From: an uncultured Thermotogae bacterium | GTDB taxonomy: Bacteria; Bipolaricaulota; Bipolaricaulia; RBG-16-55-9; JAJCYT01 | Direction: 5' to 3' | Assembly (NCBI GenBank): GCA_964572855.1 | Contig: CAZNGF010000004.1 | Coordinates: forward strand, 3,497 to 67,496 | DNA: 64,000 bases | In this document: positions 2,068-55,140 of the stretch, piece after piece | How positions within the stretch are numbered: position 1 is the first letter of the stretch | How the letters are laid out: every line of letters starts with the position of its first letter | Made by a program: the position numbers and the translations under genes | The notes under the pieces: model-generated | Databases searched by the model: none | What the model was told of the DNA's origin: nothing | What the model saw: only the letters and a program-made list of their open reading frames with translations

Positions 2068-2131
2068 GCGGCGCTCTTCGGTCGAATCGTCACGCGCGGG
2101 CTGCGCTCATGGCCGGGACGCGTGGGGGTCA

Positions 2132-2455
2132 GTGGCCCCCGCAGCCGCAGCCGCCGTTGCCCTCGAACTGCGCCTCGTTGGGGTTCTCGATGTAGAAGCC
2201 CTCGCCGTGCTCGCCGACCGTGTAGTCGATCTTCGCGCCCGCCAACAGCGCGCCGCTGTTGGGGTCGACGTAGAAGCTCACGCCGTCGTGTTCGAGCACG
2301 GTGTCCTTCTCGTCGGCGTTCTCGGCCAGGAAGAAGCCGTACTGCAGCGAACAACACCCCGACTGGGCCACGACCCGCAAGCCGTAGTCTTCTTTTTCCT
2401 CCTGCTTGAGATAGTCCTTGACCGCGGTAACGGCTTTGTCCGTGATGGTGATCAT
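2132..2455 (-). CDS. iron-sulfur cluster insertion protein, IscA/ErpA (HesB) family
   Basis: 108 aa from MITITDKAV with GGAG 9 nt upstream; C-terminal GGCGCGG cysteine motif; upstream part of listed ORF (2456-2827) is non-coding. Confidence 0.8.
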
Positions 2456-2567
2456 GTCGCGATCACTCCTTTCTCGGGGGCATCTTACTCGCCGCGCCGC
2501 GGACGCGCAATCGCTCGGCGGCCGCAAGCGCCCTTTGCAAGCCGATAACCCGGACGGGCCTTTGCCC

Positions 2568-2596
2568 TTGACCGGGGCCGGACGCCGGGCTAAAGT
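2568..2596 (+). promoter_or_regulatory. sigma70-like promoter (TTGACC-17-TAAAGT) reading into the DnaA-box region
   Basis: TTGACC at ~2568, TAAAGT at ~2591, 17-nt spacer. Confidence 0.4.
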
Positions 2597-2617
2597 GGGC
2601 CCCTTCGTGGGGTGTAT

Positions 2618-2885
2618 CTTTGACAAATGGATGAAATTGAGAATCTTTGTCAATTCCAGCCTGTTGAAAACTTGTTGAAAACCCCCCGTCCGCCTGTTGA
2701 AAACTTGTTGAAAACTACCCCCTTGGTTGTGGAAAACCCCTGTTGAAAAGTTTGGCGCCGAGTTTTCCACAGGGGTTTTCCACAGGCAAGCCCGAGTTTT
2801 CCACAGGTTTTCCACAGGGTTTTCCACAGGCTACAGGGCAGGAAAACCCGCAAGGAAAACGAAATCGTCCGAGTTTTCAACAGGT
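2618..2885. other. DnaA-box cluster with adjacent AT-rich stretch; candidate oriC or DnaA-binding regulatory site
   Basis: five tandem direct TTTTCCACA (within GTTTTCCACAGG) at ~2763-2828, one inverted copy (TGTGGAAAAC ~2728), five TGTTGAAAAC variants (~2662-2750) and GTTTTCAACAGG at ~2872; AT-rich 2620-2660 with two ATCTTTGnCAAwT 13-mer-like repeats. Confidence 0.6.
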
Positions 2886-2965
2886 AGGCCGCTCCCTACT
2901 ACAACGACTACAAGATATATGTTTTCAAAGACGGTCGTTTTCGTAGGGCGTCCCAAACCGATCCG

Positions 2966-2994
2966 TTGACGGGCCCTCGAAACGGGGGTAGACT
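2966..2994 (+). promoter_or_regulatory. sigma70-like promoter of recF (TTGACG-17-TAGACT)
   Basis: hexamers ~2966 and ~2989, 17-nt spacer, about 15 nt upstream of recF ATG with GGGGGA Shine-Dalgarno. Confidence 0.45.
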
Positions 2995-3010
2995 CGCCCG
3001 GGGGGACGCG

Positions 3011-4108
3011 ATGAAGCTGTCCAAACTCACGCTCAAGAACTTTCGCAATCTGGAACCCCTCACCCTCGTTCCGGACGAGAGCCTGAACCTGATCGTCGGG
3101 GCCAACGCCTCGGGCAAGACCAACCTGTGCGAGGCCATCGTCTACGCCTCGCGCGGCAGTCTGCTCAAGGGCGAGCGCCAGCGCGAGCTCATCCGCTGGG
3201 ACGAGGCCTGGAGCACGCTCGACGCCGAGGTGGGCTCGGACCAGATCCGCATCGTCTTGAACGGGTCCGACCGCGGAAAGCAGATCACGCTCAGCGGCGA
3301 GTCCGTCACGCACGGCAAGCTGTTCGAGGTGTTCAAGGTCGTGCTGTTCACCCCGGACGACCTGCAGGTCGTCAAGGGAAGCCCGTCGGCTCGGCGCCGG
3401 CTGCTGGACGGCGGGATCGCCGAGCTGTTCCGCTCGCACCGGGGCAACCTGCAGGCCTACGAGCAGGTCGTGCGGCGCAAGAACATCCTGCTAAGCCGCG
3501 AGCGGATCGACCCCGAGCTGCTGGCGGTGTACAACGCCGAGCTGGTCAAGCGCGGGGCCAAGCTGGTTGAAACCCGGCTCAAGTATCTGGACGCGCTCAA
3601 CCGGCACGTGGCGCGCATCCACGCCGAGCTGAGCCGCCCCGCCGGCGAGCTGACGCTGTGCTACGACAGCGAGCTTGACTACGGCGCGGAGCACACCCTG
3701 GAACCGCTCGAACACGGCGTGCATCAACGCCAGCCCCAAGAGCGCCGGCGCGGTTTGAGCCTGATCGGTCCGCACCGCGACGACCTGCGCTTTTCGCTCG
3801 AGGGGATGGACCTACGCCGCTACGGCTCGCAGGGCCAGCAGAAGACCGCGCTCATCGCGACCAAGTTCGCCCAGCTCGAGCTGTTTCGCGAGCAGGTCGG
3901 CGAATACCCCGTGCTCGTGCTCGACGACGTCTTAAGCGAGCTCGACCCCGAGCGCACCCGGCTCTTGCTGGACCACCTGCCGCAGGGGTTGCAGCTGTTC
4001 CTGACCGAGACCGCGCTGAGCGCGCCGCTGGCCGCGCGCGCCGGCAAGGTGTTCCAAGTGGCGCACGGGGGCGTGCGCGAGCTCGACAAGGAGGGCGCGT
4101 GCAGCTGA
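3011..4108 (+). CDS. recF: DNA replication and repair protein RecF
   Basis: Walker A GANASGKTN, RecF signature GSQGQQKT, Walker B VLVLDDV; start at MKLSKLTL inside longer listed ORF. Confidence 0.9.
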   Translation: MKLSKLTLKNFRNLEPLTLVPDESLNLIVGANASGKTNLCEAIVYASRGSLLKGERQRELIRWDEAWSTLDAEVGSDQIRIVLNGSDRGKQITLSGESVTHGKLFEVFKVVLFTPDDLQVVKGSPSARRRLLDGGIAELFRSHRGNLQAYEQVVRRKNILLSRERIDPELLAVYNAELVKRGAKLVETRLKYLDALNRHVARIHAELSRPAGELTLCYDSELDYGAEHTLEPLEHGVHQRQPQERRRGLSLIGPHRDDLRFSLEGMDLRRYGSQGQQKTALIATKFAQLELFREQVGEYPVLVLDDVLSELDPERTRLLLDHLPQGLQLFLTETALSAPLAARAGKVFQVAHGGVRELDKEGACS

Positions 4109-4644
4109 GCGAGCTCGAACGCCTGTTCGCCCGCTACGGCCTGCGCGACGAGTTCCGCCGCCAGGAGGCGCTCTTCCTCTGGCCTCAGGTGGCCGGGGAG
4201 CGCATCAGCCGCCTCTGTTCGGCCCAGCACGTGAGCGGGGGCGTGCTCTACGTCCAGGTGGCCAACCACGTCTACGCCCAGGAGCTGACCGCGCTGCGCG
4301 AGACCTACCTGGAGCGCCTGAACGCGCGCCTGCAGGAGCCGCTCAGCGAGATCCGCTTCAGGGTGGCGTCGGTGTCGGCGCCCCCCCCGCCCAAGCCGCC
4401 GCTGCCCTCGACCGAGGGGGTCGCGCTCGACGAGGCCGAGCGCGGCGAGGCCGAGGGAGCCGCCGACTCGGTACAGGACCCGAAGCTGCGCGGCGCGTTC
4501 GCGCGCTACTTCGCGACGCTGCGCCGGCTCGAAAAGCTCAAGGCCGAGCACACCGACGAGCGCCGCTGCCCGGTCTGCGGGCTGCACCACGACGGCCCCG
4601 AGGCGCGCTGCGCCTTCTGCCGCCTGGAAGGACGGGAAGCCTGA
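4099..4644 (+). CDS. DUF721 (DciA-like) protein with C-terminal CxxC...CxxC zinc ribbon
   Basis: 10-nt overlap with recF stop, strong AAGGAGGG SD, GTG start; DUF721 genes classically follow recF; CPVCG...CAFCR motif. Confidence 0.7.
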   Translation: MQLSELERLFARYGLRDEFRRQEALFLWPQVAGERISRLCSAQHVSGGVLYVQVANHVYAQELTALRETYLERLNARLQEPLSEIRFRVASVSAPPPPKPPLPSTEGVALDEAERGEAEGAADSVQDPKLRGAFARYFATLRRLEKLKAEHTDERRCPVCGLHHDGPEARCAFCRLEGREA

Positions 4645-8588: not shown

Positions 8589-9197
8589 ATGAAAACCCTG
8601 CACGCGGCGTTCGCCGCGCTGGCCGCGCTCTTGTTGCTGGCCGCGCCCGCCCAAGCCCACACCGGTCACGGGGGCGTCCCGATTCCCTTTCGCGTGGTCC
8701 AGTCAACCCAGCCCGCCCAAGAGCAGGTCGTGGACGTGAGCCTCTTCGAGTGGGGCCTGACCCCGAGCGTCGTCGAGGTGGACGCCGGGACCGTGCGCTT
8801 TGTGGCCGCCAACGACGGCGCGGTGGGCCACGCCTTCAAGATCACCGGGAACGGCGTGGAGGCCGAGACCGAGGTGTTCCCGGCCGGCGAGGTCCGGGCG
8901 CTGACCGTCGAGTTGGCGCCGGGCGAATACGACCTTTGGTGCCCGGTGCCGGGCCACCGGGGCCTGGGGATGGAAGCCGGCTTCCGGGCTCTGGCGGGCG
9001 AGGCGCCCGAGCCGGGGCTCAGCATCGAGCGCGCCCTGGACGCAAACGACAACGCGCGGCTCGACGACGCCGAGATCGTGCGGGCCGTCGAGCTCTGGAT
9101 CGCCGGCGAGCCCGTCCCGGGCGCGGCGGCCGTGATCTCGGACGAGACCATGCTCGCCCTGATCCGGCTCTGGGCCACCGGGGGACCAATCGCTTAG
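8589..9197 (+). CDS. secreted type-1 (blue) copper protein, cupredoxin fold, with C-terminal Ca-loop (dockerin/EF-hand-like) module
   Basis: AAAGGAGG SD; signal peptide; ligand pattern GHAF ... CPVPGHRGLGM (His, Cys, His, Met); DANDNARLDDAE loop. Confidence 0.7.
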   Translation: MKTLHAAFAALAALLLLAAPAQAHTGHGGVPIPFRVVQSTQPAQEQVVDVSLFEWGLTPSVVEVDAGTVRFVAANDGAVGHAFKITGNGVEAETEVFPAGEVRALTVELAPGEYDLWCPVPGHRGLGMEAGFRALAGEAPEPGLSIERALDANDNARLDDAEIVRAVELWIAGEPVPGAAAVISDETMLALIRLWATGGPIA

Positions 9198-9256
9198 CAT
9201 ATCTTTAACTCTAAAAGAAAGTAAATGAGCGAACTTTTAGCTCGGGTTGGTTTGTC

Positions 9257-9285
9257 TTGAACGGGTGTGGATATTGTGATATGAT
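9257..9285 (+). promoter_or_regulatory. sigma70 promoter of hpf (TTGAAC-17-TATGAT, extended TG), leaderless transcript predicted
   Basis: -10 ends ~9285; ATG at 9295 with no SD. Confidence 0.55.
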
Positions 9286-9294
9286 GCGGAAGCC

Positions 9295-9858
9295 ATGAAA
9301 ATTCGAGTATCCGAACGACATATCAAATTGCGACCCGCGGTGCGGCAGAGTTTGATCGAGAAGCTGGAGGGGCTCGAGCGCTACCTCGACCGCATCATCA
9401 GCATCGAGGCCGTGGTCGAGGGCGAGAAGGAGCACTTCGTCGTGCGGCTGGTGGCGCACATGGTGCGCAAGAAGATCGCCAAGGCCGAGTCGCAGTCGGA
9501 CGACGTGTTCCTGGCCATCAACGACGCGGTCGACAGCCTCAAGACCCAGCTCAGCAAGTTCAAGGAGCAGTTGAAGGACCATCGCGTCCCCTCCAACGCG
9601 GCGGTGCCGGGCAAGGAAGCGCCGCAGTCCCTGAGCCAGGTGGCGCCGGGGACGTCGGCGGACGGCTCGTCGGGGCGTCCGGCCATGACGCGGACCGAGG
9701 TCTACATCCGCAAGCCCATGACCGTGGACGAGGCCCTGATCCAGTTGGAGGATTACAACCGCGATCTGTACATGTTCGAGGATTCGGAAGGTGGGGGGCT
9801 GCGCATTCTCTTCCGTCACCCGGACGGCCAACTCGAGCTCATCGACCCTAAATTCTAG
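9295..9858 (+). CDS. hpf: ribosome hibernation promoting factor (long HPF/RaiA type)
   Basis: 187 aa; N-terminal S30AE domain (MKIRVSERHIKL...) and C-terminal dimerisation domain (VYIRKPMTVDEALIQLE). Confidence 0.9.
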   Translation: MKIRVSERHIKLRPAVRQSLIEKLEGLERYLDRIISIEAVVEGEKEHFVVRLVAHMVRKKIAKAESQSDDVFLAINDAVDSLKTQLSKFKEQLKDHRVPSNAAVPGKEAPQSLSQVAPGTSADGSSGRPAMTRTEVYIRKPMTVDEALIQLEDYNRDLYMFEDSEGGGLRILFRHPDGQLELIDPKF

Positions 9859-9875
9859 CTCCCGGAGGCGCGGCC

Positions 9876-10901
9876 ATGGTCAGGGCAGTCTCCTTGTTCT
9901 CCGGCAGTTTGGCCAGCGTGTTGGCGACGCGGCTGGTGATGGACGCGCCCGGCGTGGACGAGGTGCGCCTGCTCCACTTCCGCTCCCCCTTCTTCCGCCA
10001 CTTCAACGAGAGCAAGTCCCTGGCCCGCCAGCTCTGGCTCCCGCCCGTCCACAGCCAGAGCATCAAGAACGACTCGCGCGAGCTCACCAACATGAACGGC
10101 GCCTACAGCCTGAAGAACTGCTGCATGGGCTGCCGGGGCCTGATGTTGCGGCGCGGCCTGCGTTACATGCGCCGGGTCGGGGCCGATTTTCTCGTGACCG
10201 GTGAGGTGCTGGGGACGCGCGGCCTCGGACGGGCCGAGCTTGCGGCGCTTGATGCGCCGCTCAAGGACGCCGACCGGGTGTTGCGTTCGCTGTCCGCGGG
10301 CCTGCTGGCCCCCACCCTGCCGCAGCGCGAGGGCTGGGTGCCTCCCGAGCAGGTGCGCGCCTTCACGGCCGACACGCCCGAAGAAACCCTGCTGGCGCTG
10401 GCCCGCGAGCTGGACGTCGACAGGGCTGAGACCTATCCAGCCGGGCAGCGCTGCCGGCTCACGGGCGCGCGCTTCGGCAATCGGCTCGAGGACCTGATGC
10501 GCGAGCAGACGTTTTCGATGAACTCGCTGGAGCTGCTGGAGTTCCAGCACTACTACAAGCGGCCCCCCGACGTCAAGATCGTGCTCAGCTGCGAGGAGGA
10601 GGAGAAGCGCCGGCTGCAGAACTTCTTCCTGCCCAGCGACATCCGCCTCTACGTCCCGCTCTCCGACGCGCCGCTCGCGCTCATCCGCGCCCACTGGGAC
10701 GACAAGAACGACCGCGAGATCACCGAGATCGTCGAGCTGGCCGCCCGCATCGCCGGGATGCACGCCCACGGCAACGGGCGCCGCTCGCGCCAGGTGCAGG
10801 CGCATTACCGCTTCGAGCGCGAGGAGGAGACCCGCCGCATCCAGGTGACCCCGTTCGACTCGGAACAGGAGTTGGAGCCGCATTGCCTGCGTCTGGACTG
10901 A
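9876..10901 (+). CDS. PP-loop superfamily protein, ThiI/MnmA-like, with degenerate SGGxDS motif (SGSLAS)
   Basis: N-terminal VSLFSGSLASVLATRLV, cysteine motif CCMGCR and GADFLVTGEVLG block resembling ThiI/MnmA; GGAGG SD. Confidence 0.45.
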   Translation: MVRAVSLFSGSLASVLATRLVMDAPGVDEVRLLHFRSPFFRHFNESKSLARQLWLPPVHSQSIKNDSRELTNMNGAYSLKNCCMGCRGLMLRRGLRYMRRVGADFLVTGEVLGTRGLGRAELAALDAPLKDADRVLRSLSAGLLAPTLPQREGWVPPEQVRAFTADTPEETLLALARELDVDRAETYPAGQRCRLTGARFGNRLEDLMREQTFSMNSLELLEFQHYYKRPPDVKIVLSCEEEEKRRLQNFFLPSDIRLYVPLSDAPLALIRAHWDDKNDREITEIVELAARIAGMHAHGNGRRSRQVQAHYRFEREEETRRIQVTPFDSEQELEPHCLRLD

Positions 10902-10914
10902 GCACGGGGGCGCC

Positions 10915-12897
10915 GTGACGCGCGCCGTTCACCCGCTCTTGGCCGGCCTCAACCCCGTGCAGCGCGAGGCCGTGGAGCACGTTGAGGGCCCGCTGCTCAT
11001 CTTCGCGGGCGCGGGCAGCGGCAAGACCCGCGTCATCACGCACCGCATCGCCTACCTGATGGGCCATCACGGCGTGCCCGCGCGCGAGATCCTGGGGGTG
11101 ACCTTCACCAACAAGGCCGCCGGCGAGATGCTCGAGCGCATCGGCGCGCTCGTCGGCCCGGGCGAGACGCCCTGGATCCGGACCTTCCACGCCACCTGCG
11201 CGCGCTGGCTGCGCGACGACATCGACAAGCTCTCGCCGCACTACGACGGGCGCTTCACGATCCTGGACGCGGCCGAGTCGCGCGCGCTGCTGACCGGGGT
11301 GCTCAAGGAGCTCGACGTCCCCAGCGACGAGTTCAAGCCCGCCGTGCTGGCCTCCCTCATCGACCGGGCCAAGGACCACCTGGTCGGGCCTGAAACGTTC
11401 TCCGCGGCCTACGCCGACGCGCTCGATTCCTACGTGCTCGAGGTCGTCTCAAGCGCCTACAAGCGTTACCAGCGCAAGCTCGAGCGGGGCAACTGCCTGG
11501 ACTTCGCCGACCTGATCCGCCTGACCGTGGGGCTGTTCGAGGCGTTTCCGGAGGTGCTCGACCGCTACCGGCGGCGCTACCGCTTCATGCTGGTGGACGA
11601 GTACCAGGACACCAACGTGGCCCAGTACGTCTTCACGCGCCTGCTGGCCGGCGAACACCAGAACCTGTGCGCCGTGGGCGACGACGACCAGGCCATCTTC
11701 ACCTGGCGCGGGGCCGACCCCGGCAACCTGTTCAGCCTGGAGCGGGACTTCCCCGGCATCAAGGTGGTCACGCTCGGGAAGAACTACCGCTGCGGCGGGC
11801 ACATCCTGCACGCGGCCAGCGGCGTGATCCTGCACAACAGCCGGCGCAAGGACAAGCAGCTCGAGGCCGCGCGCGACCGGGGCGAGCCCGTGCGCTGGTA
11901 CGCGGCCGGCACGCAGGAGGACGAGGCCAACTTCGTCTGCAGCACGATCGACCGGCTGCACCACGAGCGCGGCGTCCCGCTCAAGGGCGTGGCCGTGCTC
12001 TACCGCGTCAACACGCTCTCGCGCGCGCTGGAGGACGCGCTCATCCGCTGGCGCCTCCCCTACGAGGTCGTGCGCGGCCTGCGCTTCTACGAGCGGCTCG
12101 AGGTCAAGGACCTGATGGCCTACCTCAAGCTCGCCGTCAACCCGCACGACGAGGCCAGCCTGCTACGCGTGATCAACCGCCCGCGGCGCGGGATCGGGGC
12201 CAAGACGCTGGCCGCCGTCCAGGCCGCCTCGCGCGCCGCGGGCGGTTCGCTCTGGGATGCGCTCTACCGGGTTACGGCCGACCCCGGCGGCGCGGGCCTG
12301 GGCGCGGGGGCCGCCAAGAAACTGCAGGGCTTTCTGGACCTGATGGAGGGCCTGCGGGCGCGGGCGGGGCACGAGCCCCCCAGCGCCGTGGCGCGCGCGA
12401 CGTTGCGCGAGACCGACTACGTCGGCGAGCTCGAGCGCAGCGACCCGGCGGCCGAGGAGCGCGCCGGCAACCTGCAGGAGCTGATCGGCCAACTGGAGTC
12501 CTACGAGGCCGCGGGCGGGTCGGACTTGTTGGGTTTCCTGGAGGAGACCGCGCTGGTTTCGGACGCCGACCACTACGACGGCGAGCAGGACCGCGTTGCG
12601 CTGCTCACGCTGCACGCGGCCAAGGGTCTGGAGTTCGACGTCGTGTTCATCGTCGGCGTGGAGGAGAACCTGTTGCCCCACAGCCGCGCGGTGCGTGAGG
12701 GCTCGCTGGAGGAGGAGCGCCGGCTCTGCTACGTCGGGATGACGCGCGCCAAGGAGCGCTTGTACCTCACCTGGGCCACCCAGCGCCTGCTCTACGGCTC
12801 GAGCCAGTTCAACCCGCCCTCGCGCTTCCTCTGGGAGATCCCCGGCGAAGACCTGGACGCCCAGCTGCCCGCCCCGCCCCGCACGCCGGCCTGGTAA
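10915..12897 (+). CDS. uvrD: ATP-dependent DNA helicase, UvrD/PcrA family
   Basis: 660 aa; motifs Q (NPVQREAV), I (AGAGSGKTRV), Ia (TFTNKAAGEM), II (DEYQDTN), VI; GTG start 14 nt after upstream stop. Confidence 0.9.
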   Translation: MTRAVHPLLAGLNPVQREAVEHVEGPLLIFAGAGSGKTRVITHRIAYLMGHHGVPAREILGVTFTNKAAGEMLERIGALVGPGETPWIRTFHATCARWLRDDIDKLSPHYDGRFTILDAAESRALLTGVLKELDVPSDEFKPAVLASLIDRAKDHLVGPETFSAAYADALDSYVLEVVSSAYKRYQRKLERGNCLDFADLIRLTVGLFEAFPEVLDRYRRRYRFMLVDEYQDTNVAQYVFTRLLAGEHQNLCAVGDDDQAIFTWRGADPGNLFSLERDFPGIKVVTLGKNYRCGGHILHAASGVILHNSRRKDKQLEAARDRGEPVRWYAAGTQEDEANFVCSTIDRLHHERGVPLKGVAVLYRVNTLSRALEDALIRWRLPYEVVRGLRFYERLEVKDLMAYLKLAVNPHDEASLLRVINRPRRGIGAKTLAAVQAASRAAGGSLWDALYRVTADPGGAGLGAGAAKKLQGFLDLMEGLRARAGHEPPSAVARATLRETDYVGELERSDPAAEERAGNLQELIGQLESYEAAGGSDLLGFLEETALVSDADHYDGEQDRVALLTLHAAKGLEFDVVFIVGVEENLLPHSRAVREGSLEEERRLCYVGMTRAKERLYLTWATQRLLYGSSQFNPPSRFLWEIPGEDLDAQLPAPPRTPAW

Positions 12898-31930: not shown

Positions 31931-32800
31931 CTACCGCAGCGACAGCACGAACGGCGTCGTCCCGCCGCCCAGCTTGAGCGTGAGCACGAGGAAGACGTTG
32001 CCCGGCACGGGCCCGCCGCCGATGGTGGTGGCCGGAGCCAGCGCGCCGGCGCGGTCGCAGAACACCGTCAGGCCCGTGCCCGGTGGCAGCGAGAGGCAGA
32101 AGCCGCCGACGTCGCTCACGACCAGCAGGATGAGCGGGTTTGAAGGCTGGTCCCACACCACGGCGCTGCTGAGCTGGCCGGCCGGCGTCGAGACGAACGT
32201 CCCGCGCGCGGTCAGGCCCGGCCCCAGCGCGGCCGTGATCAGCAGGTCGTCGGCGCCGGCCACCTTGGGCTGGGCCTGGCTGCCCTGCACCGTGGTTTGA
32301 AACCCGTTGAGCTGGAGGCGCTGCAGCACCTGGTTGGGCGTCATGCCCTGCGAGATCCCGCCCAGCTCGGGCGGCACCTGCGGCCCCTGGCCGCTGCCGC
32401 CGGGCGAGCTGGGCTCGTCGATCCCCTGGCCCGCAACCCGCGCGCGGATCACGCCGCAGGCGTACTGCGTGGTCGTGCCCATCTCGGCCGTGACGTCCAG
32501 CGCGCTCTGGCGCGGCAGCGTCCCCCGGATGTTGACCGCCGTGGGCTGTTCGTTCAGCTCGAACTCGAACGTCTGCGTATCACCGGGGCCGATCTGGGCC
32601 GGCGGCACGCGCAGGTTCACCGAGATCGACTGCTGGTTGCGCAGGAAGATGAACTGGGCGATCTGGACGTTGCCGTCGCAGCCCGAGTTGTTCACCTCGA
32701 CCGTCACCGGCACCGCGCTCTGCTGCGTCAGCGCGCTCCCGGCGGTCAAAACCACCGACAGCGCCGTCAACAGCGCGATTAACGTCATGCGTTTTCGCAA
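31931..32800 (-). CDS. secreted hypothetical protein
   Basis: signal peptide MRKRMTLIALLTALSVVLTAGSA; no recognised domain. Confidence 0.5.
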   Translation of the reverse strand: MRKRMTLIALLTALSVVLTAGSALTQQSAVPVTVEVNNSGCDGNVQIAQFIFLRNQQSISVNLRVPPAQIGPGDTQTFEFELNEQPTAVNIRGTLPRQSALDVTAEMGTTTQYACGVIRARVAGQGIDEPSSPGGSGQGPQVPPELGGISQGMTPNQVLQRLQLNGFQTTVQGSQAQPKVAGADDLLITAALGPGLTARGTFVSTPAGQLSSAVVWDQPSNPLILLVVSDVGGFCLSLPPGTGLTVFCDRAGALAPATTIGGGPVPGNVFLVLTLKLGGGTTPFVLSLR

Positions 32801-39070: not shown

Positions 39071-40390
39071 TTATGCATCGCTGTCGGGTAATTCGTCCTC
39101 AAGCAAGCGCACGCGCGCATTCAGATAGCCAACCAGGGCAATGAGCACGGTGAAAAACCCAAACAGGACAAAGATCAACGCGAATTCCCGCCCTGCTGCT
39201 GGTCCCAGCCATCCCCCCAAAGCGCGTCCCAAGGGCGTTGCCAAAAATGGGCGCAACACCTGGTCAGCAAGCGGGCCGATCAAAACCAGGCCTAAAGGCA
39301 GGGTGAGCTGGGTCAAAAAGCCGCGGGTGGCAAACACCCTGCCTTGCAGCGGGGCGGGCACCTTGGTTTGCCAAAGTGCTCGCGAGCTTCCCGCTTGAAT
39401 CGGGGTCAGCGCGCCCCCAATCGTATAAGCGAGTGCCCAGAGGGCAACGTGACCGCTCAGTCCAAAGAGCACCTGATTCAACAGCCCGATCAGCAACATG
39501 CCCCCTAAGATACCGTGGAGCTTTCTTCGCGGTCCTCCCCAGGTAGACATCATGCCCCCACCAGCGAGCTGGCCCAAGCTGAAGGCACTGAACACCATGC
39601 CCAGGGCCAGCGTATCCCCATCGGTGCGTGCCAAAACCAGCGGGGTGACCAGGCGAGTGGTGACGAACATCGAAGATATTTGGAAGCAGGCAAAAAGCGC
39701 AACCAGATTGCGGAGCCCGGGGCGCTGAAAGATGAACTGCCACCCTGTGGCCAGATCAGACCAATAGGGAAGTCGGCTTGGGGCGTCATCGTTTGCCGGA
39801 GCGGGGATTTTCAGTTTGATCAGGATGAAGGCATTGGTGAGGAAGGTGGCCACATCGATCCACATGACCCCACTTACCCCAATGACGGGAACGAGCAGGC
39901 CCGCCAGGATAGGAGCGCTGATGCTGCCGATGCTCTCCCCAAGCGAGAGCAGGCCGTAAGCGCGCCCATAATGCTGCTTGGGAAGCAGCAAGGTCACGGT
40001 GGCTTGTTCGGCAGGTGCTTGCAGAGTGCTGATGGTGCTGGAGACGGCCAACAACGCATAGATAAGTTCCAGTGTGGCCAACTGTTGCTGAATGAGCAGC
40101 AGGAGGATGCCGGTGACCATAGCTTGGCCCAGGTCCGACCACAGCAACGCCTCTTTGCGGTTGATGCGGTCGACCACCACCCCCGCCAACGGTTTGAGCA
40201 ACACCTTGGGCAAATAGTTGAACAGCATGGACAAGGCCAAAGGGGTGGCTTGACCGGTTTCCTGAAACAGCCAAACACCCAGGGCGAAAGCGGTTAAGCT
40301 CGAGCCAAGCATGGAGATGGTTTGGCCCGAGGTCAACCAGAGGAAGGTGCGATTCCCCGGCGCGCTCAGAAACCGCTTGAACGTTGGCAT
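39071..40390 (-). CDS. MFS transporter (12 TMS; EntS/macrolide-efflux-like)
   Basis: 439 aa, 12 hydrophobic segments, MFS motif (GVVVDRINRK); GC about 57%. Confidence 0.8.
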   Translation of the reverse strand: MPTFKRFLSAPGNRTFLWLTSGQTISMLGSSLTAFALGVWLFQETGQATPLALSMLFNYLPKVLLKPLAGVVVDRINRKEALLWSDLGQAMVTGILLLLIQQQLATLELIYALLAVSSTISTLQAPAEQATVTLLLPKQHYGRAYGLLSLGESIGSISAPILAGLLVPVIGVSGVMWIDVATFLTNAFILIKLKIPAPANDDAPSRLPYWSDLATGWQFIFQRPGLRNLVALFACFQISSMFVTTRLVTPLVLARTDGDTLALGMVFSAFSLGQLAGGGMMSTWGGPRRKLHGILGGMLLIGLLNQVLFGLSGHVALWALAYTIGGALTPIQAGSSRALWQTKVPAPLQGRVFATRGFLTQLTLPLGLVLIGPLADQVLRPFLATPLGRALGGWLGPAAGREFALIFVLFGFFTVLIALVGYLNARVRLLEDELPDSDA

Positions 40391-40438: not shown

Positions 40439-40942
40439 TCAGAGAGAGCGGAGATCCCACAACCTGATCTCGCCCTGGATGCAGGCCTCGGAGTCAGGGG
40501 TGCGTTCTCCGCAGGAGCCAGAGGCCAACAAATTCCCATCAGGGCTGAAAGCTACGGAGAGGATTTCGCCTTTATGGCTGGGGAGGGTACGCACTTCTCT
40601 GCCCGTGGCCGTCTCCCACAGTTTGATGGTCTGGTCACTTGAACCGGAGGCCAGCAGCCGTCCATCGGGGCTGAAGGTCACCGAACGGACAGTATTCATA
40701 TGGCCGGGAAGCGCTTGAATTTCGCTGCCCGTAGCTGTATCCCACAGCTTGATGGTCTGATCCAAAGAACCAGAAGCCAACAGGCGTCCATCGGAACTGA
40801 AGGCCACCGAGCGGACCCAGTCAGTGTGACCAGCAAGGCTACGTGCTGCTTGTGCCCAACTGAAACGGCCCGAGTAGGCTGAAATCAAAAGAAAAACTAA
40901 AACCATGCTCACCGCAACGAGCTTGAAGTTCCTCCTGCACAT
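40439..40942 (-). CDS. WD40-repeat protein, short (3-4 blades) with N-terminal signal/TM segment
   Basis: 167 aa from MCRRNFKLVAV; repeats GH-x-V-x-SVAFSPDG-LLASGS-D-TIKLW. Confidence 0.7.
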   Translation of the reverse strand: MCRRNFKLVAVSMVLVFLLISAYSGRFSWAQAARSLAGHTDWVRSVAFSSDGRLLASGSLDQTIKLWDTATGSEIQALPGHMNTVRSVTFSPDGRLLASGSSDQTIKLWETATGREVRTLPSHKGEILSVAFSPDGNLLASGSCGERTPDSEACIQGEIRLWDLRSL

Positions 40943-40970
40943 GGTTGTTCCTCGCTTTCTTGTCAGTCTA

Positions 40971-41070
40971 ATACACGGTACGGCCACGATGTTTCTTCTG
41001 TGTAGAGGCCCCATTCATGGGATCCGAGAGACACGCCTGTTCTTCGCCAGGTAAGCGTTGTGGGCGGCCA
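40971..41070. repeat. ~100-bp repeated element, copy 1 (about 80% identical to 48304-48400), contains hairpin GGCCCCATTCATGGGATCC
   Basis: direct alignment of both loci; overlaps 3' end of Crp-like ORF. Confidence 0.6.
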
Positions 41071-41680
41071 AGGCGCGTGGCTGCGAGCGCGATGAATCGC
41101 GCCCCCTTGTATATTGGGGCTGAATTGGCTGGCCAAGGAATAAGAGAGGAGGGGATAGACCATCGCGCCCCTTGGTCTTAGAGACCGTGGTGTAGCCGGG
41201 TCGTCCCGTCCTCTCGCCTTGTAAGCTCGCACTGTTACAGCCGAGAACCACTGTGGTCCTGATCTGCACACCTCCGTGTGTTTGAGCGATGACGGCGAGG
41301 AAATCCTGTGGGGTGAAGCGTAACAGCTGGGTCGTCTCCAGCGCCTGGGCGTAGGCGCGACGCGTGGCCTCCTCTAGCAGGGCCGATTTGCCCACGATGT
41401 CGCCGCGGCCGAGCAGCCGGATCATGAACGTGTGGCCAGCCAAGGTAGCATGGGTCAGACACATCCAACCGCGTCGCACGACGTAGACGTCCTGAGAAAG
41501 GTCACCCTGGGCAAACAGCGTCGCTCCCTGGGGGCAGGTTACCTTGGCAGGGGTGAGCCTTTGGTGATTTGACCCCGAGTGCAAAGCGGATTCCAGCAAG
41601 CCCACTTGTCCTCCTTTGGGAGCGTGTGGCGCGCGTTCCGGGGTGCACCGAGCGTTTGCCAAACGGCTTCGGCCAAGCAT
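41015..41680 (-). CDS. Crp/Fnr-like cNMP-binding domain protein lacking the HTH (C-terminus replaced by repeat-derived sequence)
   Basis: cNMP-binding blocks (GDLSQDVYVVRRG, RLLGRGDIVGKSALL, RRAYAQA); no HTH in any downstream frame. Confidence 0.5.
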   Translation of the reverse strand: MLGRSRLANARCTPERAPHAPKGGQVGLLESALHSGSNHQRLTPAKVTCPQGATLFAQGDLSQDVYVVRRGWMCLTHATLAGHTFMIRLLGRGDIVGKSALLEEATRRAYAQALETTQLLRFTPQDFLAVIAQTHGGVQIRTTVVLGCNSASLQGERTGRPGYTTVSKTKGRDGLSPPLLFLGQPIQPQYTRGRDSSRSQPRALAAHNAYLAKNRRVSRIP

Positions 41681-41889: not shown

Positions 41890-43323
41890 ATGCTCCAGCC
41901 ACGCTACCCCTACTACCTGGCCAACGAGCCGCAGCAGCCCAACGAGGATTTAGAGGTTTTCGACAAGTACAGCGGCCAGCGGGCCACACGCGTGGCCCTG
42001 GCCGACGAGGCGGCCATCGACCGGGCGATCGGAAAAGCCGCCGAGGCGGCCGAGCCCATGCGCGCGCTGCCCGCCTACCAGCGCCGGGACGTGCTGAACC
42101 ACTGCGTCCAGAGGTTTGGCGAGCGCTTCGACGAATTGGCCGAGAGCCTGTGCGTCGAGGCCGGCAAGCCCATCAAGGACGCGCGCGGCGAGGTGACCCG
42201 GCTCATCGACACGTTCCGCGTGGCGGCCGAGGAGGCCGTGCGGATCTACGGCGAGGTGCTGCCGCTGGACATCAGCCCGCGCGCCCGAGGCTACACGGGC
42301 ATGTGGAAGCGCGTGCCCGTGGGGCCGTGCTCCTTTATCAGCCCGTTCAACTTCCCGCTCAACCTGGCCGCGCACAAGGTCGCGCCCGCCATCGCGGCCG
42401 GCTGCCCGTTCGTGCTCAAGCCGGCCAGCCTCACGCCGATCGGCGCGCTCATCATCGGCGAGGTGCTGGCCGAAACCGACCTGCCGCCGGGGGCGTTTTC
42501 GATCCTGCCCTGCCGGCGCGACGGGGCCGAGCTGTTCACCACCGACGATCGGCTCAAGCTGCTCAGCTTCACGGGCTCGCCCGAGGTGGGCTGGGCGCTC
42601 AAGGCCAAGGCGGGCAAGAAGAAGGTGGTTTTGGAGCTGGGCGGCAACGCGGCCTGCGTGGTGGACGCCGACGCCGACCTCGACGACGCCGTGGCGCGCA
42701 TCGTCTTCGGCGCGTTCTACCAGTCGGGCCAGAGCTGCATCGGCGTCCAGCGCGTGCTGGTGCACGAATCGATCTACGACGCCTTCAAGGAAAAACTCGT
42801 GTCGGAGACGGAAACGCTCAAGATGGGCGACCCGCACGACGAGGACACCTTCATCGGCCCCATGATCTCCGAAAAGGAGGCCCAGCGGCTCGACGGCTGG
42901 ATTCAGTCCGCCGTGCAGCGCGGCGCCAATTTGCTCTGCGGGGGCAAGCGCGACGGCGCGCTGCTGGCGGCCACGCTGCTGGAGGACGTGCCCAAGGGCG
43001 AGGCCGTCGCCTGCCAGGAGGCGTTCGGACCCGTGGCCGTGTTGTCGCGTTTCAGCGACTTCGACGCCGCGCTCGACGAGGTGAACGACTCGGCTTTCGG
43101 CCTGCAGGCCGGGGTGTTCACGCGCGACCTCTACAAAGCCCAGCGCGCCTGGGATCAGCTGGACGTGGGCGGCGTGATCGTGGGCGACGTGCCGAGCTGG
43201 CGGGTCGATCACATGCCCTACGGCGGCGTGAAGGACTCCGGACTCGGGCGCGAGGGAATTCGCTTTGCGATCGAAGACATGACCGAGGTCCGCCTGCTGG
43301 TCGTGCGCGATCCGGGGGCGTAG
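41890..43323 (+). CDS. NAD(P)-dependent aldehyde dehydrogenase (GapN/lactaldehyde DH-like)
   Basis: 477 aa; catalytic Cys and Glu blocks (ELGGNAACVV, FYQSGQSCIGVQRV), NAD-binding GSPEVG. Confidence 0.9.
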   Translation: MLQPRYPYYLANEPQQPNEDLEVFDKYSGQRATRVALADEAAIDRAIGKAAEAAEPMRALPAYQRRDVLNHCVQRFGERFDELAESLCVEAGKPIKDARGEVTRLIDTFRVAAEEAVRIYGEVLPLDISPRARGYTGMWKRVPVGPCSFISPFNFPLNLAAHKVAPAIAAGCPFVLKPASLTPIGALIIGEVLAETDLPPGAFSILPCRRDGAELFTTDDRLKLLSFTGSPEVGWALKAKAGKKKVVLELGGNAACVVDADADLDDAVARIVFGAFYQSGQSCIGVQRVLVHESIYDAFKEKLVSETETLKMGDPHDEDTFIGPMISEKEAQRLDGWIQSAVQRGANLLCGGKRDGALLAATLLEDVPKGEAVACQEAFGPVAVLSRFSDFDAALDEVNDSAFGLQAGVFTRDLYKAQRAWDQLDVGGVIVGDVPSWRVDHMPYGGVKDSGLGREGIRFAIEDMTEVRLLVVRDPGA

Positions 43324-53952: not shown

Positions 53953-55140
53953 ATGGCCGCGCTCCGACTGGCGCTGATCGCGGCCCTGCTGGGGGCGCTG
54001 CTGCTGGGCTGGACGCTGCTCCGGGGCGAGCCCGCCCCGGAGGTCTCCGTTGAGCCGCCCGTCGAAATCGAACGGCCCGCGCCCTCCCGGCTCGACGCCT
54101 ACCTCGACCTGCTCGCGCTCGTCCCCGCCGCGCGCGAAACGCGGGCGCGCGTCCTGCTGAACGACTACGAGCGCGCCGTGGAAGCGCTCGGGCTCGTACG
54201 GCCGGGGCCCGAGGCCGAGCGCTCGGAGGTGCTGGCCTACGCCGAGCGGCTCGATCGAGCGGGCTTGGCGCCGGGGCCCTACGTCAGCGGCTTCGACGCG
54301 TCCGCGGCGGCCACGCTCGACGCGTTGAGGGCCAACGCGGGCTACGACCTGCGCGACGTGGCCCTAAGCCTGAGCGCGGGCGAACCGCCCGAGGCCTACA
54401 GCGCGCTGGCGCTGCAGACCGCCTCCGACAAGATCCGTCGGACCCTGATCCGCAACACGCGGGACGCTCGCCTGGAGGCCTACGCCGGCGCCCCCGTGCT
54501 GCGTTGGGGCGGGGAGTTCGACGCCGAACCGGCGCGCCGGCTACGGGCGCCCATGTACGATTCACTCGGCCGTGGCGCCAAGCTCGCCTTCCTGGAGCGA
54601 ACGCTGCTGTACACGGTCTGGACGCAAGGGCTCTACCGCATGCTCGACGCGCGCGCGGGCGAGCTCGACGCACTGGCCGACGACGTGGACTTGCGGGCGC
54701 TTGCGCGCGGCCTGGCCGAGCTGGGCGCGTTCAGCGCGTTGCTCTCGGACCGCACCCAAAGCGCCCGCCGGATCGTGCAAGCGCGCGGCGACCCCGGCTT
54801 GGCCGAACGGCTGGCCGCGCAGCCCCAGCTCGCCGGCTACGAGGCGTTCGCCGTCGGGCTGGGTCGAGACGAGGCGGGGTCGTTTGTGGGGCTGGTTCTG
54901 ATCCACGACGCGGCGTCGGACGCGCAGGCCAACGCCGCGCGCCTGGCCTCTCGTCTACGCGACGGGATCAGCCTGAGCGCGCTGCGCCCCTGGCGCGAGC
55001 GCTTCGATCCCGAGCGCGCGACCATCTGGTCCGAGGGGCGTGCCCTGAGTGCCAAGCTCCGTTTCGCGCAAGCCGACCCTCCCCCGCGCGCCTGGCTCGA
55101 CTGGGTCTACGAGCACGATCCATTGCTGTTGCACGAGTAG
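53953..55140 (+). CDS. hypothetical membrane-anchored protein (N-terminal TM, Ala/Arg/Leu-rich, ends ...DPLLLHE)
   Basis: 395 aa; translationally coupled (TAGATG) to upstream peptide; no recognised domain. Confidence 0.55.
   Translation: MAALRLALIAALLGALLLGWTLLRGEPAPEVSVEPPVEIERPAPSRLDAYLDLLALVPAARETRARVLLNDYERAVEALGLVRPGPEAERSEVLAYAERLDRAGLAPGPYVSGFDASAAATLDALRANAGYDLRDVALSLSAGEPPEAYSALALQTASDKIRRTLIRNTRDARLEAYAGAPVLRWGGEFDAEPARRLRAPMYDSLGRGAKLAFLERTLLYTVWTQGLYRMLDARAGELDALADDVDLRALARGLAELGAFSALLSDRTQSARRIVQARGDPGLAERLAAQPQLAGYEAFAVGLGRDEAGSFVGLVLIHDAASDAQANAARLASRLRDGISLSALRPWRERFDPERATIWSEGRALSAKLRFAQADPPPRAWLDWVYEHDPLLLHE

Follow-up and report, generated by a model that had tools for sequence, protein, structure and literature searches.

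The window analysed here is a stretch of 64,000 nucleotides (64 kb) of contig CAZNGF010000004.1, from an uncultured bacterium, and the element under study lies in the 555-bp spacer between an iscA-like gene and recF, which holds a dense array of DnaA-box-like repeats. Judged from its sequence, the part of this spacer between positions 2616 and 2950 is very likely a DnaA-dependent chromosomal origin of replication (oriC), kept beside recF while dnaA is elsewhere. The first-pass annotation, made by a model from the sequence alone, had proposed an origin no longer beside dnaA. That proposal is now well supported by the occurrence of the same array in the dnaA-recF spacers of sister lineages, by the geometry of the boxes and by an adjoining module of box, spacer, trio-like repeats and AT-rich DNA. 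A DnaA-box origin lying apart from dnaA is of a known kind, with E. coli among the examples. No description of an origin for a Bipolaricaulota-type group was found in the literature. The elements of the candidate origin are as follows, in window coordinates, with the basis of each assignment in brackets.

2616-2655, no strand: AT-rich segment left of the array with two 13-mers (repeat family; 69% AT; second least stable 30-mer)
2662-2749, minus strand: left half of the array, six boxes starting at 2662, 2673, 2695, 2706, 2728 and 2741 (exact-box search; offsets kept in five loci with the same gene order)
2763-2828, plus strand: right half of the array, five TTTTCCACA boxes starting at 2763, 2776, 2797, 2808 and 2820 (exact-box search)
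2829-2873, no strand: gap of 45 bp separating the five-box set from the lone box (length conserved, sequence variable)
2874-2882, plus strand: lone box TTTTCAACA, directed at the unwinding region (exact-box search; present in every complete related array)
2883-2895, no strand: GC-rich spacer GGTAGGCCGCTCC, 13 bp (sequence; equivalents of 12-14 nt in all relatives)
2894-2948, no strand: putative unwinding element, comprising a trio-like run (2896-2913), an AT-rich core (2909-2933) and an inverted arm (2934-2948) (stability, conservation)

The exact box TTTTCMACA (M being C or A) occurs 12 times in the window and every copy falls inside 2662-2882. Twelve boxes in 221 bp are far above chance, as dinucleotide-preserving shuffles of the window gave 0.29 boxes on average and never more than 2. 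When one mismatch to TTTTCCACA was allowed, just one extra site appeared away from the array, at 41957. The earlier count of at least 11 boxes in about 230 bp is thus borne out, and so is the composition then described: TTTTCCACA is present as five plus-strand copies, which make up the right half, and one minus-strand copy (2728), and TTTTCAACA as five minus-strand copies (2662, 2673, 2695, 2706 and 2741) and one plus-strand copy (2874). The order is strict, with six minus-strand boxes first and six plus-strand boxes after. From left to right the start-to-start spacings are 11, 22, 11, 22, 13, 22, 13, 21, 11, 12 and 54 bp, neighbouring boxes of the right half being 2-4 bp or roughly two helical turns apart.

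Ten further array-bearing loci, from metagenomes or metagenome-assembled genomes with GC contents of 46-67%, were recovered by looking up exact proteins and by scanning metagenomes once for the central box pattern. The central array signature is present once on the 3.2 Mb contig Ga0315338_1000001 (JGI 3300032138), which comes from a relative and has the array at about 397.7 kb; the whole metagenome collection holds the signature in just ten stretches. Where the contigs extend that far, the window's order of iscA, array and recF-dciA recurs in L083 (whose 3.2 Mb contig is shared with L098), L086, L094, L100 and L101, here called iscA-type loci. L106, the RecF of which is 88% identical to that of the window, begins inside the array and continues through recF-dciA. 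In the dnaA-type loci L090, L093 and L096, a short dnaA lies directly to the left and recF-dciA to the right, and the array fills the spacer between dnaA and recF. The window array therefore has conserved origin-region neighbours, with recF-dciA directly downstream and its counterparts in relatives lying between dnaA and recF.

The geometry of the array is rigid. Measured from the lone box, the boxes start at -212, -201, -179, -168, -146, -133, -111, -98, -77, -66, -54 and 0, and these offsets are kept to within 1 bp in five complete iscA-type loci, which span GC contents of 46-67% and have RecF proteins 60-62% identical to that of the window. The seven boxes of the truncated L106 keep their offsets as well. 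The dnaA-type arrays share the layout except for the last gap, which measures 44 bp from start to start, 10 bp or one helical turn shorter than the 54 bp of the five complete iscA-type loci (53 bp in L106). Between the window and L106, identity reaches 96% in the boxes and 88% in the region right of the lone box, compared with 67% in the other spacer sequence and 80% at third codon positions of recF. The form of the box varies by lineage: TTTTCCACA or TTATCCACA is found beside dnaA, TTTTCAACA or TTTTGAACA in low-GC genomes of the window type, and a 6:6 mixture in the window. Single boxes swap between CCACA and CAACA forms when the window is compared with L106, where the lone box is TTTTCCACA. 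Rigid spacing, with one clade off by one helical turn, provides a natural data set on how box geometry relates to initiator assembly.

To the right of the lone box and its spacer, the trio-like run reads CTA CTA CAA CGA CTA CAA and is followed by GAT ATA TGT TTT. Equivalent runs are present in every complete relative (e.g. CTA CTA CAA CTA CTA TCT ATA in L090 and CTA CTA AGA CTA CTA CTT TAT AAA in L083). The 45-mer starting at 2896-2897 is 67% AT, and an easily melted element adjoins the array at 2896-2925, the least stable 30-mer of the window spacer (-33.4 kcal/mol at 2896 versus -33.9 at 2615). In each of the seven loci tested, no 30-mer of the spacer was less stable than the equivalent right-hand segment, and the left AT-rich segment is missing in loci where dnaA abuts the array. 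For these two reasons the unwinding site is probably at 2896-2933, right of the array, and not at 2616-2655. The first-pass annotation had placed an AT-rich, unwinding-like segment at about 2620-2660; the segment exists (69% AT in the 45-mer starting at 2615), but its suggested role in unwinding was not upheld, given its absence wherever dnaA abuts the array.

The right-hand module was compared with the basal unwinding system (BUS). As formulated in PMC8287927, a BUS has a box with at most two mismatches that is directed at the trios and a spacer of 0-16 bp (peak 10-13 bp). The rule also demands at least three consecutive trios of the form 3'-NAN-5' (N-T-N on the top strand). In the window, TTTTCAACA at 2874-2882 has two mismatches to TTATCCACA and is followed by a 13-bp spacer, and the box is oriented as in the BUS entries for B. 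subtilis and D. radiodurans.

The inverted arm GTCGTTTTCGTAGGG (2934-2948) pairs with CCCTACTACAACGAC (2894-2908), so that the AT-rich core sits inside an imperfect palindrome. Its arms are near-perfect in L090, L093 and L096 (e.g. CTACTACAACTACTA ... TGTAGTAGTTGTAGTAG). Across nine loci, 79% of cells were paired in the 15-pair helix versus 29-61% with the partner slid, four pairs are altered on both sides (e.g. G-C in the window is T-A in L090), and the covariation score was matched by 11 of 500 shuffles. This is modest evidence for pairing and could reflect two conserved repeat blocks rather than selection for pairing. Inspection of the sequence by eye found no trio-like run left of the leftmost box that would mirror the right side. 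No such arrangement of inverted repeats around an AT core was found described in the origin literature. It is a speculative and rather doubtful idea that these loci represent a novel unwinding design, in which trio-like repeats on both strands form an imperfect palindrome around the AT core, the initiator may capture either strand or a hairpin or cruciform may form on opening, the partner in sister lineages would be a DnaA that lacks domains I-II, and DciA would be needed to load the helicase.

Skew at third codon positions (GC3 skew) changes sign at the array in one lineage. On the 3.2 Mb contig of L083 and in the sister metagenome-assembled genome L086, the coding-strand GC3 skew of plus-strand genes is -0.14 on the left side of the array and +0.15 on the right side, which is the polarity of an origin. 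Gene by gene in L083, seven of the ten genes to the left have negative values, and 11 of the 13 to the right have positive ones (Mann-Whitney p = 0.01). Minus-strand genes show a matching shift in L086 and hardly any in L083. Being closely related, L083 and L086 do not amount to two independent cases.

Other arrangements of the same elements were found among the relatives. L103 (9400-11600) has a tRNA cluster, a full-length dnaA, a 255-bp spacer, dciA and thrS, and recF is absent there; its spacer is a reduced version of the array, with two boxes on the minus strand, two on the plus strand that match the pattern, and in addition a TTGTCCACA variant and a run of CCTACAACTTCTTCTG. In L095 (560-1030) and L099 (8365-8600), genes for an SBP_bac_5-type solute-binding protein and an aldehyde dehydrogenase flank the same array with its palindromic unwinding region; dnaA, recF and iscA are not nearby, and the gap from the five-box set to the lone box is about 80 bp. 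In L088, dnaA lies 12 bp from recF, and no array was found in the 21 kb covered. L104 carries a related short dnaA with a tRNA-like cluster upstream (9190-11650), and neither the 10 kb upstream nor the 7.5 kb covered downstream of this dnaA contains a box cluster; separation of dnaA from oriC therefore does occur in the group. The spacer downstream of the L104 dnaA holds a run of N with an identical 55-nt sequence at both ends, which looks like an assembly gap.

Neither dnaA nor dnaN was found in the window by Pfam searches of all sizeable open reading frames (ORFs) or by tblastn with the DnaA proteins of relatives, as had been noted on first inspection. Nor is dnaA present in the 10-kb flanks of L083 and L086, and tblastn of the iscA-type spacers brought up no remnant of dnaA in any of them. 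It had further been suggested that dnaA and dnaN together moved away from recF. The part concerning dnaA stands and that concerning dnaN does not, since in the flanks of L088 and L090 dnaA precedes recF without dnaN. The simplest history would start from an ancestral order of dnaA, origin and recF-dciA, from which dnaA (in the window lineage) or recF (in L103) left; the window lineage would thus have lost dnaA from a place between which and recF the origin of the group's ancestor lay, and the origin would have stayed with recF-dciA.

Many related loci encode short DnaA proteins (about 347-362 aa) that have no match to DnaA_N (domain I) and start close to the AAA+ domain (coordinates of the genes: L088, 8918-9988; L090, 8494-9678; L104, 10001-11074). 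Full-length DnaA exists in other Bipolaricaulota, e.g. P0205 with 441 aa. A DnaA lacking domains I-II is unusual, considering the role of domain I in helicase contact.

As to the source organism, the databases assign RecF homologues of 45-47% identity to Candidatus Bipolaricaulota or Bipolaricaulia, Candidatus Acetothermia is the name attached to DnaA proteins from the related loci, and closer RecF relatives range from 58 to 88% identity; by these protein matches the window genome probably belongs to the Bipolaricaulota/Acetothermia. Exact look-ups with NadE, IscA and RecF returned only a 5.6 kb contig lying inside the window. A scan of reference genomes based on RecF gave distant loci only (at most 36% identical, mostly Firmicutes) and was left unused.

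From the layout of the boxes and of the adjoining module, a mechanism can be proposed. DnaA would fill two opposed sets of close boxes, six on the minus and five on the plus strand, and the gaps of 2-4 bp or of multiples of about 11 bp would allow two head-to-tail DnaA oligomers. The sixth plus-strand box stands 45 bp further on, 13 bp from the CTA repeats (3'-GAT-5' on the other strand), and DnaA at this lone box would extend onto the repeats, or hold them, once single-stranded. The 45-bp gap is a candidate site for a bending protein of the HU/IHF kind, by analogy with the R1-IHF-R5M interval of E. coli (PMC10325909) and with T. maritima, and bending may bring the five-box oligomer close. The AT-rich core would then open at about 2909-2933, and the helicase would be loaded with the help of DciA, encoded just downstream. 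The architecture, its conservation, its place beside dnaA in sister lineages and the low duplex stability are observed; from them we infer that DnaA binds the array, where the DNA unwinds, that the gap is bent and that the origin fires. The gap itself contains two GGAAAAC half-box-like repeats (2841-2860); L106 is partly similar, and more distant relatives do not have them.

Several observations weigh against placing the origin here. Half of the window boxes and most boxes of close relatives are of the TTTTCAACA/TTTTGAACA forms, which depart from TTWTNCACA at position 6. The trio-like run is interrupted: it consists of two good triplets, one or two non-conforming ones and then one or two good ones, so that just two consecutive conforming triplets fall within 16 bp. 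Since a non-conforming triplet breaks the run, the window element resembles a BUS in its sequence and is called BUS-like only, not a strict member. Plain GC skew is flat near the array in the window, and gene-strand bias is equally uninformative. The strand-corrected GC3 skew of the window, which has only 2.6 kb left of the array, is -0.10 for plus-strand genes and +0.10 for minus-strand genes in plus-strand coordinates; it thus shows no replication-strand component, and GC skew does not decide the matter in this genome. Elsewhere the shift is weak in L090, and there is no sign change in L095 and L099; skew thus speaks for an origin in one lineage and says nothing in the others. In L107 (RecF 59% identical), no array was found upstream of recF. 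Finally, none of the 3.2 Mb, 209 kb and 75.6 kb contigs yielded a DnaA in two homology searches. As the dnaA of the window genome and of the 3.2 Mb relative was not located, a second box cluster may lie beside it. At 9780-10005 of L107, a CCCTACTACTCGCTACTCAG remnant and other GC-rich repeats are found upstream of recF, and this contig is possibly rearranged or misassembled because it contains mirror-image copies of PKD-domain genes.

These points bear differently on the alternatives. The array could be a relic of an ancestral origin that now only titrates or recycles DnaA, like datA, DARS or the DnaA-box clusters of B. subtilis, while replication starts elsewhere, for instance by the relocated dnaA. 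Such a relic would fit the finding that neither the window nor the flanks of L083 and L086 contain dnaA, and also the lack of a replication-related skew in the window. We consider it unlikely, and grant it the weight it has mainly because the surroundings of dnaA could not be inspected in these genomes, the homology searches having failed to find the gene. A titration site of the datA type is a box cluster without an unwinding element, whereas here a conserved unwinding module adjoins the array. The spacer, trio-like run and AT-rich DNA would be superfluous for titration, yet they are conserved along with the boxes, at 88% identity to L106 and with the lowest stability in every locus. Moreover, the spacing is kept base for base across a large shift in GC content, GC3 skew flips with origin polarity at the array on the contig of the 3.2 Mb relative, and the related dnaA of L104 has no box cluster adjoining it.

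The position of the array between two divergent genes, with promoter-like sites at 2568-2596 and 2966-2994, could also be taken to indicate a DnaA operator for recF-dciA or for the iscA-like gene, with no role in replication. It is common for promoters in the dnaA-dnaN-recF region to be regulated through DnaA boxes. Even so, this explanation is very unlikely: twelve phased boxes far exceed those of known operators, and where the boxes of a DnaA-regulated promoter overlap or abut it, the last box here ends at 2882, 83 bp before the probable -35 element of recF, so no box overlaps the recF promoter (2966-2994). The recurrence of the array among unrelated neighbours in L095 and L099 means that it is not tied to a particular promoter. 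Least credible of all is that the repeats bind a protein other than DnaA, such as a partition or nucleoid protein. The departure at position 6, shared by 6 of the 12 window boxes and almost every box in L083, L086 and L100, would fit such a protein. Against this, the window array is homologous, position by position, to arrays beside dnaA that consist entirely of TTTTCCACA or TTATCCACA (L090, L096), and it is this homology to canonical-box arrays that makes another binder improbable; CCACA and CAACA forms also occupy equivalent positions in the window and interchange with L106.

A DnaA-dependent oriC in the recF spacer would provide a testable origin candidate for a phylum known almost only from metagenomes. 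Origin finders that rely on dnaA adjacency or on GC skew may miss oriC in the window genome, and the array could serve as an anchor in genome-resolved metagenomics, both for setting the start coordinate and for coverage-based estimates of growth rate. The related loci also show evolutionary steps, the order dnaA, origin, recF-dciA seemingly being the older one and dnaA or recF having later been lost nearby. The interest of the locus is moderate and rests on the uncultured, deep-branching phylum, the very rigid geometry and the palindromic pair of repeats.

The features flanking the candidate origin are the following.

2129-2455, minus strand: iscA/HesB-like Fe-S assembly gene, transcribed away from the array (PF01521 Fe-S_biosyn, E = 2e-14)
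2568-2596, plus strand: sigma70-like promoter match TTGACC-17-TAAAGT, directed toward the array (consensus scan, 9 of 12 positions)
2966-2994, plus strand: probable recF promoter TTGACG-17-TAGACT (consensus scan)
3011-4108, plus strand: recF, the right neighbour (SMC_N and AAA_23 domains; homologues named RecF)
4099-4644, plus strand: dciA (DUF721), overlapping the end of recF (PF05258 DciA, E = 4e-15)

These domain matches confirm the earlier placement of the array between an iscA-like gene and recF, with a DciA-like gene next. The iscA-like left neighbour is shared with L083, L086, L094, L100 and L101. On the other side, dciA comes after recF in all relatives with a downstream flank, and directly after the box cluster in L103. 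In the window, dciA is followed by a glycosyltransferase gene and then by glpX. The overlaps of recF with dciA (10 nt, 4099-4108) and of the dciA stop with the glycosyltransferase start (1 nt, 4644) suggest a recF-dciA-GT4 operon, and the gene order recF-dciA-glycosyltransferase is also found in L083, L086 and L100. The TAGACT -10 element of the recF promoter is kept in L083, L086, L100 and L106, and dnaA-type relatives have TATAAT in its place.

The site at 2568-2596 is a putative promoter by its match to the consensus, and corresponds to the sigma70-like promoter reported earlier at about 2568. Directly after it lies a short GC-rich hairpin (2599-2613) followed by GTATCTTTGA, so a transcript starting there might be short. 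The two 13-mer-like repeats that had been recognised in the left AT-rich segment are indeed present, as ATCTTTGACAAAT at 2616-2628 and ATCTTTGTCAATT at 2643-2655, and iscA-type relatives show a loosely similar AAATTGAAAAT motif there. They were set aside as an unwinding element on account of the loci that lack the segment, which is probably accessory.

Elsewhere in the window, GC content falls to 0.55-0.58 between 37000 and 42000, compared with about 0.68 in the rest. Encoded in this stretch, on the minus strand, are an MFS transporter (39071-40390), a WD40-repeat protein (40439-41014) and a cyclic-nucleotide (cNMP)-binding protein (41015-41680); it may be an acquired island. Scans of the window returned no Rfam family and no tRNA, which rules out an rRNA operon as the cause of the low GC. 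Two ORFs with a strong coding signature have no Pfam match (53953-55140, 395 aa; 31931-32800, 289 aa).

Among known systems, titration and reactivation loci (datA and DARS of E. coli, the DnaA-box clusters of B. subtilis) share with the window array the clustering of boxes away from dnaA. To our knowledge, however, such loci have few boxes and no unwinding module of box, spacer, trios and AT-rich DNA, unlike the window array. The oriC of E. coli consists of an unwinding element (DUE), box R1, an IHF site, R5M/tau2/I1/I2, R2 and an opposed right-hand set, with boxes of one orientation and a 2-bp spacing. The window likewise has a putative unwinding element, a lone box, a gap of about 45 bp, five boxes of the same orientation that are 2-4 bp or two turns apart, and an opposed set, and both lie apart from dnaA. 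Unlike E. coli, its neighbours are iscA and recF rather than mnmG and mioC, and its single-strand motif is trio-like rather than TTATT. Neither 13-mer L/M/R repeats nor a recognisable IHF consensus of the E. coli type were seen in the candidate origin. In E. coli, according to PMC10325909, IHF bends the R1-R5M interval.

The oriC of T. maritima has box 1 by the unwinding element, then a spacer thought to bind HU, then a box cluster; tandem TAG/CTA triplets are essential for its unwinding, and a 2-bp spacing is optimal for two boxes of the same orientation. The window layout of lone box, spacer and box cluster is similar, with CTA triplets at the putative unwinding element. In T. maritima, by contrast, the box is 12 bp long and has another sequence, the three TAG repeats are uninterrupted, and a single inverted box takes the place of an inverted half.

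In the BUS of B. subtilis oriC (incC), DnaA-box#6/#7 are followed by a GC spacer, DnaA-trios and AT-rich DNA, and the window module has the same order: a box directed at the repeats, a short GC-rich spacer (13 bp in the window), and CTA CTA followed by AT-rich DNA. The top strand of this BUS, as entered among the experimentally studied modules in the supplementary table of PMC8287927, is TTATCCACA-AATCCACA-GGCC-CTACTATTACTTCTACTA-TTTTTTATA. The origins of the sister lineages also lie just downstream of dnaA, as in B. subtilis. However, the window has one recognisable box at the spacer, an interrupted trio run and an inverted copy of the repeats past the AT core, and neither dnaA nor dnaN flanks it. 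D. radiodurans, whose origin is catalogued in DoriC, has a BUS for which unwinding was shown in vitro (PMC8287927), with the tabulated top strand TTTTCCACA-GTATCCACA-GGCC-CTACTACTGCTACTACTG-TTTTTATTTTTT. Its TTTTCCACA box variant is in common with the window array, and so is a nine-base rhythm of two CTA and a third triplet, seen as CTACTACTG twice there and as CTACTACAA-CTACTA in L090 and L096. Unlike those of the window, its triplets all keep the conserved middle base, and the table entry, which runs from box to trios, shows no inverted arm. Should the novel unwinding design doubted above prove true, a deep-branching group would have a minimal origin-initiator system that joins two-sided boxes of the E. 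coli type to a trio module of the Bacillus type.

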